A DNA stretch of 63,825 nucleotides, filler included, from Reclinomonas americana ATCC 50394 (taxonomy: Eukaryota): NCBI GenBank assembly GCA_048213135.1. It is 8 parts of 3 records of this genome, joined end to end, with 100 filler letters (N's around TTAATTAATTAA, not from the genome) between each part and the next. Parts side by side here need not be neighbours in the genome. Positions count along the whole stretch, not along the records: positions 11,127 to 34,802 come from PS015273.1; 7 more parts are not named here. The stretch is one strand, 5' to 3'. The notes beneath the pieces are model-generated. The model was given only the letters and a program-made list of their open reading frames with translations. It was not told where the DNA came from and made no database searches. Each line of letters begins with the position of its first letter. Within the stretch, counting starts at the first letter, position 1. This document shows positions 13,799 to 44,422 of this stretch, piece after piece. The position numbers were made by a program, and so were the translations under genes.

Positions 13799-23224
<9,426 letters not shown>

Positions 23225-23908: not shown

Positions 23909-26900
23909 TCATTCGTCGCCGTCATTATTGGCGACATCTCGAATTTCCAACCTCACTACCTCTGCACTACTCAGAAGCAAAGCGTTGATGACAGAGTCGC
24001 CGACAAGTTGCACGTGTGGTCCCAATGCCAGCTGCTCCTCAGCAGCTTGGTAAATTTCGACTCCCGAGCACTGTCTCGGCATCCCGGCTTCGTGTCTCAG
24101 CCGACGTCGGCAAAATACCACCACAGCCTTGACCGCAGACAGCATCACTGGACCCACCAACACCGCACCAACCAGAGAGAGTATCACGATACACGTGACA
24201 ACCTTGAAGCGCGCGGATGCCTGTGATGCGAACACGGTGGAGATGACAACCAGCGAGCCGAGACCAATGGCCTGTCAAGCACAATGAGTATGCATATATG
24301 TCCACACTCAACATGTGCGCGACTCACCTCCAGCACATTGTACAAGAGGTGTTCAAAGGCGCGAACAACGAGATGCACCATGAGGAAGGCGACACACACT
24401 ACCCACAGCGCCAATGGGAGAATCTCAATCGATCCCGTGGCAGCGAGCGGGAAGAGCACGGCAAGGACGATCAGACGTCGACACACTTGATATCCTGGTG
24501 TACAGGAAGCGTGAGTGCAAAAGTCACGCTCGGTGCGGTGTTGATCATCATCAGCGTGATGATGCAGGTGGAGCAGCGTAATATCCCTTACAGTGTGGGG
24601 TTTCTCTCAGTTTGTAATTCGCGTACGAGACTCATGTCGGCGATATATTGTGCGTACCCAGCAAAGACGTTACCTTATCTTCAATGTGATAGATATATAG
24701 CACAGACCACCCTTCCCTTCGCGCCACTCACCTTGATACCACACCACCGGAGGCCGGAAGTGATCATACAACACACCGAATCGACGCCGAGTCTGCCGCA
24801 CAGGCGTGACACCACGACATCTCACGCTGGTTACACATGCAATCACACAAACCTTCTCGTCATGCAGTCTCTTTTGCCGCCGCAAGCGCACGGTCCACCA
24901 CACCACAAGTACTGGCACGCTCAGAATGGCTGCAAATAGCACAGCGAAGAGCGGAATTATTCGCTGCCATCTGTGCACACACACACACTTGCTGATCAGC
25001 ATGGAAAGTGAAAGTCAAGCAGCTGCAAATAAAACGCAACACTCCCTCGTAGCACACAATGCTGGGCGAAAAGAGTACTACATGACTGTTGCCGACCTCT
25101 GTGCAGGTGAAAAAAGTGATGGCCGTCTCTGCTAGGCCCTCGTACGCTCCTAGCAGCAGTACAACTGTCGTCAGAATGTAGCGGTGCGGTGATGCAACGA
25201 GCTTGAACCACACGACAAATCGTTGCCACCGTCCGCCCGTCGAGCTGCTGTGATGCAGCCGTCCACGATGGATGCAGCGCACCAATGCTTTTGCAAGCAG
25301 ACAATGTAGAACAAAGCAGGCCCACAAGATCGCCAGCGACACAAATGGCGATACGACGCGAGCCAGCATGTCACCGACAGCGTCTGTGTTGAACGGGCAG
25401 CCGACATCCAGAATGTGCGGCACGACAAAGGTGAGAAGCCGGTTGAGAGAGATGAGTTCCACGTTGGGGTAGAAGAGCAGTGTGGTGGTCTGGAGCGTGA
25501 AGATGATGATTTCGGCAGATGCTGCAAGCAGGGACGAATGCAAGTCACTCTTTGTGACGATCGACCCTGAACAAGGTGTTCATACCTCCTCCAACGTCAA
25601 CCTGGAAAAACACATGGACGAAGAGCACAAAGGCAAGCATCTTTGCAAACGTCCACAAGCGCGCCCAGCCGGACGTGGTCTCGCACGGAATGCACACTCC
25701 CTGCCACTGAGAGTAGCCCTCCTGCATATTCCTGTGAGAATACCATCGTCCTCTCGCGGCACTGACATGTGACTCACCTTGCACGCTCCACACAGAGGTG
25801 AGTCTGACGCGCGATTCGTCTCCGCATTGCAGTATTCGGCGTCAACGGCAACCAAAGTTTGGCTTGTGCCATCACCGCGTTCACAGTAATCATAGGGACA
25901 GAGGTATGCCACCACAGCAGACGGTGGCGACACCAGCGTGCCTGTCCACCCTTTCGACAAGACACCCTCAATCTGCCAATTAGCATCGACGGGGAATGTC
26001 CAGAACTGCGACCGCATTGCCAGCTGCAGTCCGCCGAGGCAGTCGGCATTGGCTGGACACGGTACACACGTCTGGTTGAATGCGCTCGTCGGCAGCGCAT
26101 ACTCGCCAGGGGGACATTGCTGGCAACCAATGTCCGTGTAGCTGTAACCCGCAGGGCAGGCTGCCAGTGGCAATGAGAGCTCAGGCTGTGGACCGACAAA
26201 GCCACCACCAGAGCCAGTGGTGATGCTGATGCTCACAGAGTCACTGCTGTCGCGCAGATGCGGACGAGCGCTTTGGGTCGGATTCGCCCCTCGCTCGACA
26301 ATCGTCAACTGGAATGTCGCTGTTCCAGCAACAGTCGACTCGGACAGAGAGCTTGTCTGCACAAGTGGACGGGGGTCGTTAGCGTGGAACAATCTTTAAT
26401 GAAGAGATGAGCAAGCACGACAAACCGCTGGGCTGCAACCAGTAGAGCAAGTGACATGGAACTGGGTATTGTCCAGTGTGGACATGAACTGACCAAAGAC
26501 ATCCGTAGCGTTCACCTGAACGACTCGCGGCTGCTGCGGAGATGGATATGGCACGCCACTGGTCGAGTCCATCATCACAGAGTACAGCGCTGCAGCGGAG
26601 CGTGAGCCTTCAAAATACAAGTTAACAAATTTGTGCTCATCACGCTCAACGCAACTGCTGCCGACATCATTCGCCAGCGAGTTACTGGCCAGGTTATCAG
26701 TGACGCTTAATTGCCGCTGCAGCATCCACGAAGACCATCCGCCAGCAGCAGCGAACGACTGCGATACAGCAGCCAGCGTGGACGGCTTGCCACCACCGTT
26801 CCAAAACACGCCGCCACCGGCTCCTTCGCCGACCAGTCGCGGTTGACCCAGAGGCGCCACCGCTTGATTGCTAAACACTGATACACCATACAGGAGCACA

Positions 26901-29900
26901 CCGACAGAGCCCACTGTCGACTGTGTGATGTTGACGGCCAGGCCACCACCGCGTGCTCCACTCCAGTTGTTAGCAAACGTCGTTGAGATAAACGAAGTCA
27001 CCGTCGTGTCAACTACCGATGCTCCACCACCATCACCTCTCTCGGCCGTGTTGCTGACAAAGCGAGCATCTGAGCAGTTAAGCATGGAAGAGCCACCGGC
27101 AAAGAGTCCGCCACCAACTTTTGTCGCCGTGTTGTTCATCAGCAGCGAGCCCGTGATATTCACTTGTGGATTGTTGTCTGTGTACACACCACCTCCGCTC
27201 TCAGCTTGGTTTCCCTCCACTGTCACTGCCGTCATTGCCACTCGCGCAGTCTCCGCTGCCGATACGCCACCACCGCCGCCACCAGCGACACGATTGGCGA
27301 GCATTCTCGACCCCCGCAGCGTGGTGCTTGAGCTGCCAGCAGCATACAATGCACCGCCCCACAACTGTGCCAGGCCAGCACTCAGCGTGCTGCCCGTATC
27401 TGTCCACATTCCCAGTCCCTGTGCAGTCACATGTCCACCAGATGTGGCTGCTGTGTTGCTCAGGAACTGGGTGGTGGACGACGTGACATTGGCTGTTTGG
27501 GACACGTACATGCCACCTCCGGCCAAGGTGGCATTGTTGGTTGACATAATGCAGTTGGCGAGGCTGATCTGCGACACGCCATCGGCATACACGCCACCAC
27601 CATCTGCAGTCGCCTGATTGCCGCTGATTGTAGTGCCAGTCAACGTGTGCTTGCTGTTCTGGTCAGTGAACATGCCACTGCCAAAGGGAGCAGAATTGCC
27701 AACAATGAAGGCATTCGACCAGGAAGACGAGGACTGCAGGTCGGCAAACATTCCACCACCGAAATGGAGTGCCTTGTTGTTCTGCACACTCGTGCCACTC
27801 GACACGGCAAGCGTGGCGGTGGCAGTGAGAAATAAACCACCACCGCTCTGCACAGCTTGATTGCTGTCCACAACAGATTGTGATTGAATCTGCAAAAACA
27901 CCTGCTCGGCTCGCACTGCAAGACCGCCACCATTCAGCGCCGTGTTGCCGGAGATACTGGTATTGCTGATCGTGGCTGTGGTGGCCACCTCGTTGAATAC
28001 CACTCCACCACCGTATCCGCTAGGCGCTGAGTTCGACGAGACGAAAGAGTCCGTAATCTTGCAGCCCTGACCACTCATCGCCACGCCGCCACCACCCGTT
28101 GCCAGCGCAGTGTTCCCCGAGACATGAGATGCGGCAAGGAGAGACTGCGCTCCCACTAGCACACCGCCACCAGTAACGAGCTCGCCAGACACGGAGTTGC
28201 CCGAGATGACACATCCAGTTGCTGAGCTTGATGCGTCGAGTAGTAGAGCGCCACCTCCATGGGAGCGACCGGCAATGACGAGTGGAACAGATGATTGCAT
28301 GGAATTGCCAGCCAAAGTTGACGAGGAAACGACAGCACCACCGATGGCGAGCACCGCGCCGCCACCGCAGAATCCACCAGAAGGATATAGCGCATTGCCA
28401 GCACCAGCATCCTCCACGCGGTTGTTGACAAACTGAGAAGCACTGACGGTGGCAGCAGAGTTCACCAGCATCAGTGCACCACCACCATTGTGGTTGCTGC
28501 CTTGCCCATTGAGCGTGTTGCTGAGGCCGCCCGAACCGTCACGGAGAGACTGGTTGCCGATGAATGTGCAATTGGCAACGCTGAATGTGCCCTACGAACG
28601 AAGAAACAAATGGCGAGTGAGTGGGCTTCGATCCCGACAATATGGGCAAAAGAAACGGTGCAACCGCTGTTGTCGACGGTGCAACCAGTAACGCCGCTCC
28701 ACCGCCATTGAATCCGCCAAACGAGGAACCAATCGTGCTGTTGAAACCGCCCGCACCATTGTGCCACGACGTGTTGTTGAGAAACAGTGACTGGCTGAGA
28801 ATCTGCAACGCAAAAGTGAGCGGCTTCGCGCTCGGACAGCAGTTGCTATCTATTATTTTGCAGTGAGAGAACGAACAAACACAGACGCAGAGTTGGCCGC
28901 GGAACAGACGAGCAAGGCACCACCACCGGCAAAGGCTGACGAGCTGCTGCCGGAAGATGCGTTCCCGCTGCCTCCGTTACCTGAGGAGACAATGAGCTAG
29001 GGAGCTATTGACAGAGAATGTAAGCGTGCAAGAAGTAACCATTAACACCAGCAGTATTGTTGAAGAAGGTGGAGGCGGATATCTGTTCGCCAGCAGCGCG
29101 AGCGTAAGATCTTAAGATACTGGCGAGGCTGCCCGACTGGGTGACGAGGTCAATCAGACCTCAAGAACGCCACGCACAGCCGCCAGAATGGCACCCCCAC
29201 CACTGGCTGAACCGGAAGCGTCACCATGATTTGCATTGGACCCGCCCGCGGAATTCATCGAGGCAGAATTGGAATGGAACGCACAGCGCCGAACGGTTAC
29301 CTGCTCAAGTGCGACAGTTATGTGAGATGGGTAGACATACCGATGACAGAAGCAAGTGCACCTTACTCGTATTGCTTCCCAAAAACAATAGCAGCACACC
29401 ACCACCGTTGTGAGAGCTTGATACATTATTCGTACCCTGACTCGATCCGCCGTTTCCATTTATACTGGCCTCGCTTGCCACAAAGAAACAGTCCTGTATA
29501 ACCTTCTTGTGGAATCTTGTGAGCATCGCGCGAGAATAAAAACCACCGCATACAAACCAGTTTTGTGTCGATTCTCGATGCCGCCGCAACCAACAACATC
29601 GCTCCACCTCCATTAAATGAACCGGAAGCACTGGCCGATCCTATGTCCACAAGCGCCAGAGCAAGCAAGCTAATTTAAGCCCCAGCATGTGATCTCACTG
29701 TTTTCTAGTACATTGCAGACTGTGCAACACGTAGGTGTGTACCTGAGGTACTGGAGATGGAACCACCATTTCCATTGGCATTCGCAGTATTTGATGAAAA
29801 TGTACAGTTGCTGATGGTCTGCAACGACTGCGAATGTCTGTGTCAAGATCAATGTGAAGCGAGGATTGCGCTAGATATAGATATTAGAGTCTACAGCATT

Positions 29901-32900
29901 CTCTCACACCCTGAGTGCAAGCCACCAACCAGAGCGCAAACACACCTGGTTTGTCTTACCGACGCTGGTGAAGTTGATTAACATGACGCCACCACCGTTA
30001 GTGGTACTTCTGCTGTCCACACTGTCAGACCCTGTAAGCAACAGCAAACAAACTTAATCTTACGTAATTACACAAGTAAATCAACCAACAATGTGGATGA
30101 TCAAAACACTTAGTACGCACAACGCACGCAAGCAAGAGTAATCCACCTCCACTTACCGTTTCCATACACAACGGAACCTCCATTTCCGTTACTGTTTGCA
30201 GTATTTGAGGTGAATATGCTGTTGCTGACGGTCTGCGACAATCGGTGTACATGTGAGAGTCTCAATTAGCAATACATCGTGAATTACACACGCTGAGTAT
30301 TGAAGTACAACCGCGTCAATCTCACTCTCTCACTCGTTGAAAATCAATCGAAATAGGACAAAACACACACCTGCACTGCAGAACCGAGGTTTAAGTCGAT
30401 AAGCATGACTCCACCACCGTTGGTGCTGCTGTTGCTATCCGAACTGTGATAGGCTGACTCTAGAAGAAGAACGCACCAATAAAACAGTAACACACGCATG
30501 AGCAATCAATGGCCAGTCACAAAGGGCCCAGCAAAAACAGGAATTAGTCATTCACACACCAACTGGACTTCAGATTCATAACTCACCTCCGCCATTCCCG
30601 TTGCTGTTAGCAGTATTTGATGCGAATGTGCAGTTCCTGATGATCTGCGACAGATACAATCGGCCGCAGATTATTTGAGATCTTGATCTCTATCAACTGC
30701 TACCAATAAACAGTCAAGATCTCACGTATGGCACACCTGAGTTATAGATGTATCAAGGACGAGGATCAGCATAACACCGCCACCATTGGCGACACCGTTG
30801 CTGCTCGTACTTTGATTCAACACCCCTGCACAAATGAACGTCAACTCAGCGGGCACTATGCAACTCTCGCATGTCACCCAATGAGCAACACAAGGTTGGC
30901 ACCGCTACTCACCGGTACCGCCATTTCCATTGCTGTTCGCGGAATTGGATGTGAAATTACAGTTGCTTACTGTCTGTGAGACAACAATAATACTCCGCCG
31001 AGTTCGCTCAGACAAACAGCCATGCAGTCAGTCACAACGCACCTGGCTTGCAGGACTGCCAACGACGAAGATAAGCATGACGCCACCACCGTTCCCCGCA
31101 CTGCTGCTGCTCGCACTCCCACCGGTACCATTACTCCCTGCACATAGGCATCACATAATCCAAACAACCACACGTGCACTCAGCATGCCACGTTCCACAC
31201 CAGCAGCACACGCACACCAAGTGCGCTCAGACACTCACCGCCACTTCCGTTGCTGTTCGCAGTGTTCAATGCAAATTTGCAGTGGTTGACGGTCTGCGTC
31301 AACTGCGAGAGATTTCAGCGAATGACAACGCTCGCCTAACCACGCGATGCGCGTGACACAGGCATTGCAAATAACAGCCAGGTACCTGGCCCCCGACGAA
31401 CAGCATAACGCCTCCGCCATTCATGCTGCTGTCGCCATTTGCCCTCATGAAGGATATCCCTGCATGCAAACACACAACAACTGCGTCAACCATCTGTACA
31501 CTAGGCCGCGGAAATATTGGAGGCAATAATTACAGCCGATCATCTGCGGCTGAGATCGTCTAAACTCCGTTACTCACCGCCACTTCCGTTCTTGCTCGCA
31601 GTGTTTGATACGAAAGCGCAGTTGCTGATGCTCTGTGACAGGAAATTTAGTCTCAGAAAAAATTCACAATTGGTTTTGAGTTAACTCGTGCAAGCAAACA
31701 AGTAAACGACCAGGGAGAACACACGTGGACTGTGGAATTGCTTCCAACGGAGATCAGCATGACCCCGCCACCATTCAAGAAACCAAAGCTAGTCGCACTC
31801 CCGGGAGTTTCTATTCGTGAAGACCACATCAACGTCGACGATCACCACACAGACAAAAAAGTGCTTCACGTCTCACCACCGCCGTTCCCATTGCCGTTTG
31901 CGAAATTCGATATGAAAGTACAGTTGCTGATGGTCTGCGACACCAGCAGCAGGTCACAGCAAAAAGCAACACGTATTTGATATTTCAAACGCGCAAACTC
32001 AGAAGTAGACCGTCAAGTATAACGCACCTGATTTGCGTTATTGCTATCAACTGAAATCAGCATGACGCCACCGCCATGCAGGCCACCGTTCGCACTGGAA
32101 CTCTCGGAAGTCCCTGTACATGACACCACATAAAACGAATCAAAACCAAGGTCTCAACCACACATGCTTCTACCAACATCACCAGACTGACAGACGCAGA
32201 AACGGATAGTGCGTTCCGCAGCTCACCGAAACCACCATTACCATTTCCATTTGCAGTGTTCGATAGGAAGGTGCAGTTCATAATTGTCTGCAACAGCTGT
32301 GCGAGCAATCAGTTATCGAGTTATCAGAGTGAGGCGGAAGTTTGCTGTTACTGCCCACGTGCCTGACTTGTACTGGCGAACATTAAGACACCACCACCGG
32401 CAATCGACGCGTTCGAATCGGAAGCTACGATATTTCCATCGCCTCCACTTGAATTCTGATCTGCGTCGTTGAACATGAACGTTGAACCGTTGATCTGTCG
32501 ATGCCAATCATGAAATTCAGCAGCACATGACGTATCTTGAAATAACACGATCACTCACAGCCTGTGTGGTTGGACCAGTTCCAGCGAAGTGCGACCAGAT
32601 GACTCCACCACCGACTTGCACACCGATAGCGTTTCCTGATATCATATTGTCGTCTCCGCCGATTGCATCTCTCGACGCTGAGTTGTTGAGAAACAAACTG
32701 TAACTGACCTGTTCACACTTCATGTGATTCGACCACTCAGCGACATTAACAAGCACCATCTTGCACCACTTACTTCAAGGGTCGACGCTCCAGACGCCCA
32801 CACAACACCTCCACCGCAGTCACTCCCAGAACCTCCTTCGCCTGGGAGGGAGCTGCCTCCCTTGCAGCTGCCAGTGGCACTGTTTCCAGTGGCGGATACA

Positions 32901-34496
32901 CTCTACATAATTGTTGTCGTGAGAACATGATTCGAATCACGGCAGGTCAACACAAACCCTCATGATCACAGAAGTCGACGAGGAAACCGAGGCAAACGAA
33001 GCCCAAACAGCTCCACCACCGACTCCTTGACCGCCACTGGCGTGTGTGACGGAACATTCCGGACCGGCTGCTGAGCATTGTACTCCACTGGCACTATTAA
33101 CCACCGAATTGCCACTGAGCGATGTGCCGAGGAACTGGACATGCAGAGCATTGCTGACAAAAAGTCCACCGCCGCCCACATTCGTGAAACCGTTTGCAGA
33201 TTTCTCATCACCGTTTCCACATTGGAGTACGGTGTTGTTGGTCCACGCACCACTCACATCCGTCACCGTCGCCGAGATTGGATCCGCCACATACATGGCG
33301 CCGCCGCCAGTGTTGCCCTTGGTGAGATTCATCGCCGTGCTGTTGACGAAATGGGTACCGACCATGTTTACGGTAACGCCACCCGTTCCCGACACGAACA
33401 CCGCGCCGCCACCCGCAAAGCCCGACGATGTCGCTGTACTGCCTGAACCGACAACCGAGTTACTGGAGAACACACTGTCTTGCAAAAAGACAGTGGCATC
33501 AGCGGCGAGATTGACAAGTGACATAGCGGCTCCAGAGGCATCGTCGCCGACTTTGGTGCATCCATGCCAAGTGGAGCCCGTGATCCGAGCGACCGAGAAG
33601 CGACCGGATGCGACCACGGCAGAGGACAGTGTACCACGTGCAGATGCACGGTGGTTTACAAACTGAGAGTCGGAGATGGAGAGCGATGCGGAGGAAGTTG
33701 CGGGCAGGGCTGTTGCATCCAGCTGGAGCGCGCCTGCCGTAGCGCCAGTGAACGAGCAATTGGAGACGACGACCTGCGGAGATAGTGTGGTGGCCAGAGC
33801 GCTCCAAGAGACCGCCGGCTGACCGCCAGTCACGGTGAGGCCAATCATCTCGAAACGTGATGAATCTTGTACGACAACGGATGAAGACGCTTGCAAGATG
33901 GGCAGTGCCGATGATGATGAAGCCTGGAGGGTGATGTTGCGACCTGTGGAAACGAGAGTGAGCGAGCTTGGAAACGAATCGTGCGCAGCGGCTGCGCTCA
34001 CCACTTAGAGCGAGGGGTGCTGACAATAAAAAATTGTCGCCTGAGAACAGAACCTGCAAGGCCCACTCCGGTGACGTAGCCGCGTATCCACGCTGCTCAC
34101 ATGATGCCATGATCTGACTCAGAGCGCAGGGCGAAGCGGAATAACCACAGGGCGTGGATGAGGAGCCTGCGGCGGCGACATTCACTGGAGGATGCGGACA
34201 TGAGATATGATAACTTCATTGCCAAGAACACAAGAAGCACGCATGCTCATACGCTCACCTGTACAGAGAGGCGACGGAGGTGCGGATGCGAAAAAAGTTG
34301 CACGATCAGACGCAAGCGGAGTTGAGCGGCGGACAATAGTGTGGGGGACGGCGGGTTCGAAAGCACACGATGTGGACATGACTTGCTCTCCACTGTCGCT
34401 CGCAGCACACATGTGGAACAGAGCACTGATTAGAAGCAGCACTGTTGCCATCACTCCCACCGAGCATGCTGCAATCACACGACGTGTGTATCGCAT
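23909..34496 (-). CDS. Large receptor-like protein: signal peptide, PMP-type GGA/FxxN right-handed beta-helix, Cys-rich (GCC2/GCC3-like) segment and C-terminal multi-pass (about 7 TM) domain
   Basis: More than 30 exons. It has many FxxN...GGG[AV] repeats, CPAGYS...C.QCPPGEY...CVPCPANADCLGG and PLCGACKEGYS, then hydrophobic helices with FGVLYDHF...WY and CRRLIVL motifs. The stop is at 23909. Confidence 0.85.
29558..32287 (-). repeat. Tandem array of eight duplicated two-exon modules, each encoding one beta-helix rung
   Basis: A exons (phase 0 to 1): 32287-32227, 31934-31877, 31632-31578, 31293-31239, 30973-30913, 30644-30587, 30232-30178, 29818-29764. B exons (phase 1 to 0): 32113-32028, 31810-31725, 31459-31386, 31137-31043, 30825-30737, 30459-30371, 30031-29946, 29640-29558. 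Confidence 0.85.
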
Positions 34497-35290
34497 TTGA
34501 TATCGCGATCGAATCTGGATCGACGGCGTTTCGAATTCGCTGGCCAATGGCTTGTTCATCTGCGCCGCACACGGAGTCTGCACGCACGCCAACAGATGTG
34601 TGAGATGACATAAAATTTGCGAGAAGTGTGAACGCCGCACAGTGTCTTTTCGCGCTCCTGATCCAGCGAACGACGAACGGTGGGGAGGACGATCGAATTT
34701 TCTGACAAACTTCACATGTACACGAGGCGATTGCCTGACCTCGTCGATCCATGCGTCGTATAACAGACTTAGTCGACGGTGCACATTGCTGCACATATCC
34801 AANNNNNNNNNNNNNNNNNNNNNNNNNNNNNNNNNNNNNNNNNNNNTTAATTAATTAANNNNNNNNNNNNNNNNNNNNNNNNNNNNNNNNNNNNNNNNNN
34901 NNCCCCCCCCCCCCCCCTTCCTCGAAGCTCCAGAAAACTGGAGACAACGCCTTTGCCTGCAAGAAAATCGAGCGTAGAAACAGTAAAGAGGTGGAGGTCA
35001 GTAGCGAAGGACTCTGCCAGTCCATGAAACGTACACCACTCAAGGCGCAAATGAGAGAGAAAAAGAGACAAATAAGTGGAACGACACAGGTCAATCGCGA
35101 AGCACGAGTGAAGGCAGTCGCCTACTTTCATGTACCACATCCGCCTCCACTTCCTCTCCGACCACCATCTCTACAGAGCCGACGCAACAATTGGTCCAAC
35201 CGATTCCCCCGCCTTGGCCAACTGCATTCAACAATCAACCACATTCATGCCCTCACTCGCCGCCACACAATTTACGCACCATCAATCCCC

Positions 35291-43104: not shown

Positions 43105-43372
43105 TCAAGCGACCGTCGACGTCGATATTTATAAGAGGAATAGTGTACCACGCTTGTTCAACCTCCGAGGAGATCATCCGATGGTGGACTCATGCGCGTT
43201 GCTGCGTGAGAGCGAGTATGTGCCAGACCGAAATGATCTCTCTCTTGGACTAGACGACGTTTGCGTGTCCGCAGCGGACGCGTCTGACACTTCTCGCACG
43301 CCGAACACACGCAATGGCTTTCAAGGTGATCGTGCAGTGTTTGCTTGCGGCGTGCGCAGTGCTTGATGGCAG

Positions 43373-44422
43373 AGGTTCGTGCAGGTACTGCAAGGCCACA
43401 CTGAGGTGGTTCGATCAGTGGCAGTCACACCCGATGGCCAGCACATTGTGAGCGGCAGTTGGGACAGTACTGTATGGGTGTGGTCGGTGGCTAGTGGCGA
43501 GGAGGTGCGCCGACTGGAAGGCCACACGAGTGCGGTGACTGCAGCGGCAGTGACACCCGATGGCCAGCACGTTGTGAGTGGCAGTTTAGACAGGACTGTA
43601 CGAGTGTGGTCGGTGGCAAGTGGCGAGGAGGTACGCCGACTGGATGGCTACACGAGTGTGGTGAATGCAGTGACGGTGACACCCGATGGCCAGCACATTG
43701 TGAGTGGCAGTGCGGACAAGACTGTACGCGTGTGGTCGTTGGCAAGTGGTGGGGAGGTGCGCCGACTGGAGGGCCACACGGGTGGGTTGTATGCAGTGAC
43801 GGTGACACCGGATGGCCAGCACATTGTGAGTGGCGGTGCTGACTGTACTGTACGGGTGTGGTCGGTGGCAAGTGGCGAGGAGGTGCGCCGACTGGAGGGC
43901 CACACGAGTACGGTGGAGGCAGTGGCAGTGACATCCGATGGCCAGTACATTGTGAGTTGCAGCGCGGACGAGACTGTACGAGTGTGGTCAGTGGCAAGTG
44001 GCGAGGAAGTGCGCCGCTTGAAAGGCCACACGGATTGGGTGCGTGCAGTGGCAGTGACACCCGATGGCCAGCACATTGTGAGTGGCAGTGATGACAACAC
44101 TGTACGGGTGTGGTCGCTGGCGAGTGGCAAAGAGGTGCGCCGACTGGAAGGCCATACTGGGCCAGTGTATGCAGTGGCAGTGACACCCGATGGCCAGCAA
44201 ATTGTCAGTGGCAGTTACGACATGACTGTACGGGTGTGGCCCACAACACACGGCCATGCCAATGCCGAGCTGCTGGCTGCCCGATATGCCCATCAAGCCA
44301 TCATCGAAATCCAGCTGCCACCCGATGCGGACGACGACCCGCGGTGCCTCGTGGAGATTGTGCTGCGCTGCTTCATCGTCGAGGACGCGGAAGCTATTCT
44401 CTATGCTTCGCCGATTTTTTGA
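43373..44422 (+). CDS. Seven-bladed WD40 protein built of near-identical 42-aa (126-bp) repeats plus a ~55-aa C-terminal extension; start not resolved
   Basis: Seven copies of L.GHT..V.AVAVTPDGQHIVSGS.D.TVRVWSVASGEEVRR in one uninterrupted frame. There is an in-frame TGA at 43364 and no in-frame ATG, so an upstream exon is needed (CAG acceptors at 43372 and 43384). Confidence 0.85.
   Translation, partial: RFVQVLQGHTEVVRSVAVTPDGQHIVSGSWDSTVWVWSVASGEEVRRLEGHTSAVTAAAVTPDGQHVVSGSLDRTVRVWSVASGEEVRRLDGYTSVVNAVTVTPDGQHIVSGSADKTVRVWSLASGGEVRRLEGHTGGLYAVTVTPDGQHIVSGGADCTVRVWSVASGEEVRRLEGHTSTVEAVAVTSDGQYIVSCSADETVRVWSVASGEEVRRLKGHTDWVRAVAVTPDGQHIVSGSDDNTVRVWSLASGKEVRRLEGHTGPVYAVAVTPDGQQIVSGSYDMTVRVWPTTHGHANAELLAARYAHQAIIEIQLPPDADDDPRCLVEIVLRCFIVEDAEAILYASPIF

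Follow-up and report, generated by a model that had tools for sequence, protein, structure and literature searches.

Arthropod Dscam1 is a surface receptor gene with tandemly duplicated exons, in which the alternatives lie side by side and only one of them is used. In Tetrahymena, LRR repeats occur in arrays of 90-bp exons, the repeats having been duplicated with their intron, and younger arrays have introns longer than background (Xiong et al. 2019, PMC6564038). The brown-algal ROCO and NB-ARC-TPR genes are candidate receptors with one repeat per exon, and diversification by shuffling and splicing has been proposed for them (Zambounis et al. 2012, PMC3341825; PMC11378527). In the chlamydial Pmp proteins (Debrine et al. 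2023, PMC10715098), each beta-helix rung carries one FxxN motif paired with one GG(A/G)x motif, and these pairs frame variable omega-loops on a common face. The same paper places Pmp-like proteins in Trichomonas, in archaea and in bacteria of other groups as well. In the literature searched, no report was found of such exon arrays on a Pmp-type beta-helix.

The locus described here is a single gene on the minus strand of a 63,825-nt stretch of Reclinomonas americana ATCC 50394 DNA (the window). The gene model (23909..34559) has 35 exons in a single open frame of 7698 nt, or 2565 aa, with an uncertain start codon at 34559 or a later ATG, and its introns are 33 GT-AG and one GC-AG. In order, the modelled protein has an N-terminal hydrophobic segment, a Pmp-like beta-helix, a Cys-rich region and a multi-pass membrane body. 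The long exon E3 (32958..33943) encodes N-terminal beta-helix rungs in this model; a single-sequence fold of E3 was all-beta and was set aside for its low confidence (mean pLDDT 40). A second long exon, E28 (26426..28591), whose first rungs have long FxxN-to-GGG loops, is predicted by AlphaFold2 to form a regular right-handed beta-helix (mean pLDDT 75, pTM 0.79), with loops 18-37, 62-78 and 103-108 below 50. Every top Foldseek match to E28 is a beta-helix (E at best 5e-4), and Pfam PF02415 (Chlam_PMP) matches it below the cut-off, at E 0.07.

The C-terminal part of the model was checked against relatives. Exons E29-E30 (25586..26356) encode the Cys-rich region running into the first membrane segment, and have 24 relatives at E<=0.001, the best of them 35-42% identical. 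Exons E31-E35 (23909..25521) encode the membrane body, about seven segments in a hydropathy scan, and the E31/E32 boundary is uncertain. E31 is 33% identical to the protein P0123 (E 2e-30), and the C-terminal ~570 aa can be aligned continuously through the modelled junctions with two intron-free relatives, P0143 and P0123. Single short membrane exons gave no match to P0143 in pairwise BLASTP, but the longer alignment did match. Hidden exons in a 237-nt intron were excluded, as its flanks align gap-free to P0143. The gene's own product was absent from the protein-search matches, which reached 24-35% at best for E28 (proteins of 1265-3610 aa) and at most 42% for E29. One of 111 candidate metagenome stretches matched at E 2e-5; it is AT-rich, bacterial-looking DNA and was dismissed as a chance match. 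The window also contains a KIF9-like kinesin, at most 70% identical to any match listed, and the organism is probably flagellated.

The middle of the gene holds eight cassettes, each of one A exon and one B exon, as the first-pass annotation had proposed. All 15 introns between these exons are GT-AG, every A exon runs from phase 0 to phase 1 and every B exon (74-95 nt) from phase 1 to phase 0, all within the one open frame. On the minus strand, cassette 1 consists of A1 at 32287-32227 (61 nt) and B1 at 32113-32028 (86 nt), cassette 2 of A2 at 31934-31877 (58 nt) and B2 at 31810-31725 (86 nt), cassette 3 of A3 at 31632-31578 (55 nt) and B3 at 31459-31386 (74 nt), and cassette 4 of A4 at 31293-31239 (55 nt) and B4 at 31137-31043 (95 nt). 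Cassette 5 has A5 at 30973-30913 (61 nt) and B5 at 30825-30737 (89 nt), cassette 6 has A6 at 30644-30587 (58 nt) and B6 at 30459-30371 (89 nt), cassette 7 has A7 at 30232-30157 (76 nt) and B7 at 30031-29946 (86 nt), and cassette 8 has A8 at 29818-29743 (76 nt) and B8 at 29640-29558 (83 nt). An A-exon length of 55-61 nt had been claimed for all eight; this holds for A1-A6, but for both A7 and A8 the preferred length is 76 nt, making the range 55-76 nt. The 76-nt reading of the A7 donor agrees with the consensus and scores 8.1, compared with 4.4 at 55 nt. The A8 donor is ambiguous, with in-frame donors at 76, 67 and 55 nt, and 76 nt was taken as the best reading. A profile built from the A exons matched these eight and only one other place in the window, the latter at E 0.88; the eight matches, at E 1e-16 to 1e-19, are to the sequences from which the profile was made. 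A repeat search recovered eight A copies and seven B copies in register at a spacing of 302-422 nt. No broken or spare exon copies were found in the gene, where the open frame uses all exons, by the A-profile search of the window.

The other repeats had been thought to be confined to long exons. They are not, as short rung exons flank the cassettes on both sides. Upstream lie three single-exon rungs of phase 0-0, R1 (32902-32774), R2 (32708-32559) and R3 (32494-32363), the last of which ends in a GC donor. Downstream lie two more of the same phase, R12 (29502-29362) and R13 (29300-29160), and R12 resembles a cassette, A part followed by B part, that lacks the inner intron. Next come a ninth split rung, of A14 (29082-29040, 43 nt) and B14 (28980-28877, 104 nt), with its phase-1 intron earlier in the loop than in the eight cassettes, at codon 9, and the single-exon rung R15 (28665..28802, phase 0-0), for which the choice of donor is uncertain. 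The array is therefore larger than the eight cassettes, at 15 consecutive rungs each bounded by phase-0 introns. An F-led motif is present in 14 of the 15 (R1 is degenerate, and R12 lacks the N) and a GGG(A/V) motif in all of them. The F falls at codon 7 of the unit in ten rungs, at codon 6 in three and at codon 8 in one, counts in which A3 and R13 were corrected by eye. From the identity of these motifs, the cassette region would be expected to share the beta-helix fold.

The intron positions, described earlier as identical in all eight cassettes, are so for the phase-0 introns. The phase-1 intron sits in the omega-loop, between FxxN and GGG, but lies 12-19 codons past the F of FxxN, differing among cassettes by whole codons. 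The distance from FxxN to GGG is 26-28 aa in 13 of the 15 rungs. A long A part pairs with a short B part (P=0.006, 40320 pairings), a result that depends on the donors chosen: P is 0.05 with A8 at 67 nt, 0.23 with A8 at 55 nt and 0.65 with both A7 and A8 at 55 nt, and for the first six cassettes alone it is 0.12, computed before a one-residue correction to A3. The loops are Ser/Gly/Asn-rich and cannot be aligned among cassettes. Within A2-A6 the portion of the loop contributed by the A exon hardly varies. Through splice-site shifts, the loop intron may quicken the evolution of the loops.

Variable intron positions also fit a model in which loop diversity comes from local splice choice, through alternative in-frame A donors or an optional micro-exon that would alter loop length by a few residues. 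Seven of the eight A exons have at least one further in-frame, stop-free GT donor, no donor of A8 stands out, and intron A1>B1 contains a candidate 6-nt in-frame exon (32169-32164) between introns of 57 and 50 nt (P=0.02 from 300 shuffles, uncorrected, one of nine introns tested). However, Gly-rich codons create GT sites by chance, the modelled donor has the top score in seven of the eight A exons, and loop 1 is of the usual length without the micro-exon. We regard local splice choice as quite improbable. Intron retention as a loop extender was excluded: 7 of the 25 repeat-block introns have a length divisible by three, and because all seven carry a stop, retention never lengthens a loop.

The cassettes were proposed to derive from serial duplication of an intron-containing module, and their sequences bear this out. 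They are 64-82% identical to each other over 78 aligned nt, compared with 44-58% to five flanking rungs (R13 was excluded, its window being one codon off). Over 27 core codons in 28 pairs, pS averages 0.67 (range 0.34-0.90) and pN 0.17, which points to purifying selection on the alignable core. Synonymous sites are near saturation, and the cassettes are therefore old. The introns have diverged, as originally noted: their interiors are unalignable and show no homology above controls (mean z 0.74 and 0.40 within classes, 0.71 between classes, 0.58 for other introns). Adjacent cassettes are slightly more alike (rho 0.42, from pairs that are not independent). A tree of 13 rungs, with mostly low supports and R13 misaligned by one codon, gives no duplication order.

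The array could in principle still be a hotspot of DNA change, with unequal crossover or conversion, inside the gene and between paralogues, varying the number and order of its cassettes from strain to strain in the manner of the Tetrahymena 90-bp LRR exons. A-exon distances do not correlate with B-core distances (rho 0.08), a pattern that either past mosaicism or mere saturation could produce. Against ongoing exchange, no cassette pair exceeds 82% identity, the longest exact match between cassettes is 21 nt, and both the synonymous sites and the introns have the divergence described above. No cassette look-alike was found among the other DNA windows compared, by a short-word comparison that requires identity of about 90%. 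The continuing unequal crossover suggested in the first-pass annotation is thus very improbable.

Exon skipping was the other proposed source of diversity, on the grounds that any A exon could join any downstream B exon in frame. This is arithmetically true of A-to-B joins. However, 56 of the 105 non-adjacent joins inside the array shift the frame (49 keep it), and so do all 16 single-exon skips. Of the eight flanking rung exons, six could each be left out with the frame intact, and these are the single-exon rungs. Regulated or stochastic skipping of several exons at once would produce rods of varied length and chimeric loops, and 1597 phase-matched paths lead from R3 to R12, out of 65536 exon subsets. 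Skipping of B(i) through A(j) would fuse the first half of one loop with the second half of another, and the intron lies inside a loop that is expected from work on Pmps to bind ligands (PMC10715098). The array introns are longer than the rest (median 101 nt, compared with 64 nt for the gene's others), and two pairs of loop introns pair better than shuffles, A5>B5 with A7>B7 (p 0.015) and A1>B1 with A3>B3 (p 0.022), both uncorrected. There is a parallel in Ectocarpus, where ROCO genes have annotated variants with differing LRR sets (PMC11378527).

The splice sites argue otherwise. Skipped exons tend toward weak sites, and skipping is raised in bilaterians only (PMC6142364). Sites in the array are not weak: the median donor score is 8.1 and the median acceptor score 5.7, compared with 6.3 and 4.3 for the gene's 18 others, by a matrix that is based on 18 sites. 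The two duplexes are diffuse, represent 2 of 28 loop-intron pairs and leave no intron with more than two partners, and the repeat and intron-pairing scans of the array found no shared docking element, common partner intron or recurring inverted repeat. With the A part nearly constant in A2-A6, most chimeras there would amount to deletion of a whole cassette, not a new loop. Because every single skip shifts the frame, the sites are as strong as elsewhere and there is no common pairing partner, skipping is not favoured by the sequence, and we consider the multi-exon form unlikely. Phase symmetry is a requirement of any surviving duplication, and is no sign of design for skipping.

The array is probably the product of an old expansion, within the gene, of an intron-bearing rung, with constitutive splicing and a fixed row of different loops. 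In this model, the product is a multi-pass protein of the cell surface with a Pmp-type right-handed beta-helix as its ectodomain; a 15-rung run came to hold one rung per phase-0-bounded unit, and one rung had a phase-1 intron in its omega-loop. Unequal crossing over between neighbouring units is the most likely way in which that unit, both introns included, would have been copied head to tail to give the eight cassettes. Afterwards the introns would have lost all similarity, purifying selection would have kept the buried motif residues, and the loops would have drifted by substitution, by indels and by movement of the two splice sites that flank the loop intron. All 16 exons would normally be included in order, yielding one long rod, to which each copy would add one turn and one variable surface loop. 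The first reading of the locus had the loops lining one face; the Pmp literature (PMC10715098) and the model of the adjoining exon E28 support a stack of cassette loops on one face of the rod. By analogy with the Pmps, the row of eight loops would likely serve in binding, either to adhere or to sense prey or substrate.

How does this gene compare with the known systems? Its rungs carry the same FxxN/GGA-like motif pairs as the Pmps, and E28 is modelled as a right-handed parallel beta-helix with low-confidence loops between motifs. Unlike the Pmps, the protein has no autotransporter barrel and ends in its Cys-rich region and helical membrane segments, and its rungs are encoded by duplicated units that contain introns, one of which interrupts the loop. 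An unnamed protist family (P0123, P0143, P0137) combines a beta-helix with a Cys-rich region and a multi-pass membrane body, and its Cys-rich and membrane regions align with those of the gene. Atlas clusters of hypothetical proteins from ciliates and chlorophytes (Atlas scores 0.85-0.86) are counted with this family as leads only.

It is hardly likely that Pmp-like surface receptors of this lineage, several paralogues among them, carry an intron in the ligand-facing omega-loop of each rung and use paired skipping or shifted donors to make chimeric loops and rods of varied length, and so constitute splice-based variable receptors in a unicellular eukaryote. If RNA showed paired skipping, this would be a protist variable-receptor mechanism on a new fold, comparable in kind to brown-algal ROCO and Dscam. 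In the likeliest case, the gene illustrates cleanly how a repeat protein can grow when exons are duplicated together with their introns.

Three further comparisons can be made. First, Dscam1 differs in that the exons here follow an ABAB order, are all jointly in open frame and showed no shared docking element. Second, the Tetrahymena arrays resemble this one in having one solenoid repeat per same-phase unit and introns longer than background. They consist of LRRs in a single exon of fixed length, in thousands of genes, with young near-identical copies and links to retrotransposons, whereas this gene has a beta-helix, two exons per unit, variable length and old copies. Third, the 72-nt exons of brown algae can each be skipped in frame, as none of the 16 array exons here can; those algal genes have positively selected sites, inactivated exons and annotated splice variants, while in this gene no dead copies were found and the alignable core is under purifying selection. 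Like these repeat-per-exon genes, the Reclinomonas gene has introns of one phase that fall at a fixed point in each successive repeat, here through 15 rungs. Actively shuffling arrays would be expected to hold young, near-identical copies scrambled between paralogues or strains; within this gene, the cassettes are neither young nor near-identical.

On the minus strand at 29558-32287, eight A exons alternate with eight B exons, separated by 15 GT-AG introns. One A and one B exon together form a cassette that encodes a single beta-helix rung, with an inner (loop) intron parting A from B. The first-pass annotation had described eight such pairs, with A exons running from phase 0 to 1 and B exons from phase 1 to 0. 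The phases are as claimed, and a repeat finder recovered eight A and seven B copies in register, so this core observation holds. The A-exon lengths given there (55-61 nt) stand except for A7, which is 76 nt long, and probably A8, likewise 76 nt, where the frame is kept equally by a donor at 55, 67 or 76 nt. The loop intron does not occupy an identical position in all eight cassettes, as had been proposed, falling instead 12-19 codons past the F of the FxxN motif. Nor are the gene's other repeats all in long exons: single-exon phase 0-0 rungs lie upstream (R1-R3) and downstream (R12, R13, R15), A14/B14 is a ninth split rung, and phase-0 introns bound 15 consecutive rungs. R12 (29502-29362, minus strand) resembles an A plus B cassette without a loop intron, and is either the state predating intron gain or a precise intron loss. 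In the intron between R3 and A1 (32362-32288, minus strand), the frame requires a GC donor, the sole non-GT donor among the gene's 34 introns.

The array belongs to a gene (23909-34559, minus strand) modelled as one open frame of 35 exons and 2565 amino acids, uncertain at the start codon, the R15 donor and the boundary between membrane-body exons E31 and E32. The protein has a hydrophobic segment at its N-terminus, followed by a long stretch of repeats, then a Cys-rich region and finally some seven membrane segments. Its C-terminal 570 amino acids align with two intron-free relatives, P0143 and P0123, across the modelled junctions, which supports the splice rules used. A 237-nt intron (24731-24495, minus strand), roughly four times as long as is usual in this gene and with several donor-like sites inside, is probably single, since its flanks align to P0143 without a gap. 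Two eukaryotic beta-helix matches, P0061 and P0033, have an end region matching Pfam PF06011 (TRP-like), above the cut-off in P0061, and the membrane body of proteins of this type may be related to that family.

The gene sits wholly between gaps, several of which in the window (e.g. 34803-34902) are built as 44 N, a 12-base AT spacer and 44 N. Convergent with it, at about 14900-23224 (plus strand), is the gene of a large surface protein, rich in Thr, Ala and Ser and encoded almost without introns, that carries several fibronectin type III domains and ends in a hydrophobic tail. A low-complexity ORF (45606-46637, minus strand) repeats Lys-Ala-Gly triplets in alternation with acidic stretches. 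A KIF9/KIF6-like kinesin gene (60656-62760, minus strand), at most 70% identical to the proteins listed, suggests a flagellated host without a close sequenced relative.

The eight cassettes share 64-82% identity over 78 aligned nt, versus 44-58% with five flanking rungs (R13 excluded). They thus represent a burst that came later than the run of rungs around them. This burst is itself old, given a mean pS of 0.67 and pN of 0.17 (27 core codons, 28 pairs), a longest exact match of 21 nt, and intron interiors without class-specific homology, the last confirming the divergence noted earlier. Class flavor survives only in splice signals, with GTGAG starting six of eight A donors and GTG(C/T)G six of eight B donors. 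A rung tree gave no resolution of duplication order. WD40-like repeats in an intron-free run at 43367-44422 (plus strand), highly similar in ORF translation, are much closer to each other than the cassettes are.

The array is a real structure produced by old duplication, and it is most likely spliced constitutively. That the gene encodes a splice-based variable receptor is improbable. Frame-compatible joins between array exons do exist, as the first-pass annotation held, but they make up fewer than half (49 of 105 non-adjacent joins); all 16 single-exon skips shift the frame, which is kept in 1597 of 65536 exon subsets. All seven repeat-block introns with lengths divisible by three contain stops, no intron serves as a shared pairing partner, and no spare or dead exon copies were found. 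Array splice sites equal the gene's other 18 in strength (on a small training set); according to PMC6142364, skipped exons tend toward weak sites, and skipping was raised only in bilaterians across 65 eukaryotes. Within a cassette, a longer A goes with a shorter B (P=0.006; 0.05-0.65 with other A7/A8 donor choices). In favor of diversification, array introns exceed the gene's other introns in length (median 101 vs 64 nt, p=8e-5). Longer introns are linked to skipping in PMC6142364; in Tetrahymena, arrays have longer introns simply when they are younger (PMC6564038). Among 28 pairings of loop introns, two are stronger than in shuffled sequences (p 0.015 and 0.022, uncorrected), and of nine long introns one contains a candidate 6-nt in-frame exon (P=0.02, uncorrected). 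This candidate micro-exon lies at 32169-32164 (minus strand) in the A1-B1 intron, with sub-introns of 57 and 50 nt. Annotated variants also exist for Ectocarpus ROCO genes (PMC11378527).

The long downstream repeat exon E28 is predicted to form a right-handed beta-helix of regular build (pLDDT 75, pTM 0.79), with its long FxxN-to-GGG stretches below pLDDT 50. In structure it is matched best by generic beta-helices, and in sequence it is related to Pmp-repeat proteins (24-35%). According to Debrine et al. (PMC10715098), FxxN and GGA(I/V/L) of Pmp rungs pack against each other, framing an omega-loop; these loops all emerge on one face, and those of PmpE correlate with tissue tropism. Mapped from the motifs and the E28 model, the phase-0 intron would fall in the first strand near the rung start, whereas the phase-1 intron would interrupt the omega-loop. 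Ser, Gly and Asn make up 69% of loop residues (114/166). The FxxN-to-GGG span, after a one-residue correction to A3 and R13, is 26-28 amino acids in 13 of 15 rungs, 29 in cassette 8 and 31 in cassette 7.

Our literature search, with most subscription journals outside its scope, turned up no published exon array in a gene of the Pmp-like beta-helix type. The array does not match the Dscam pattern. The protein works like a Pmp passenger domain carried by a membrane protein of a protist; lacking a barrel, it is no chlamydial Pmp. In layout, the gene belongs with the arrays of one repeat per exon described from Tetrahymena and brown algae (PMC6564038, PMC3341825 and PMC11378527), and differs from these in its fold, its two exons per unit and its lack of young copies.
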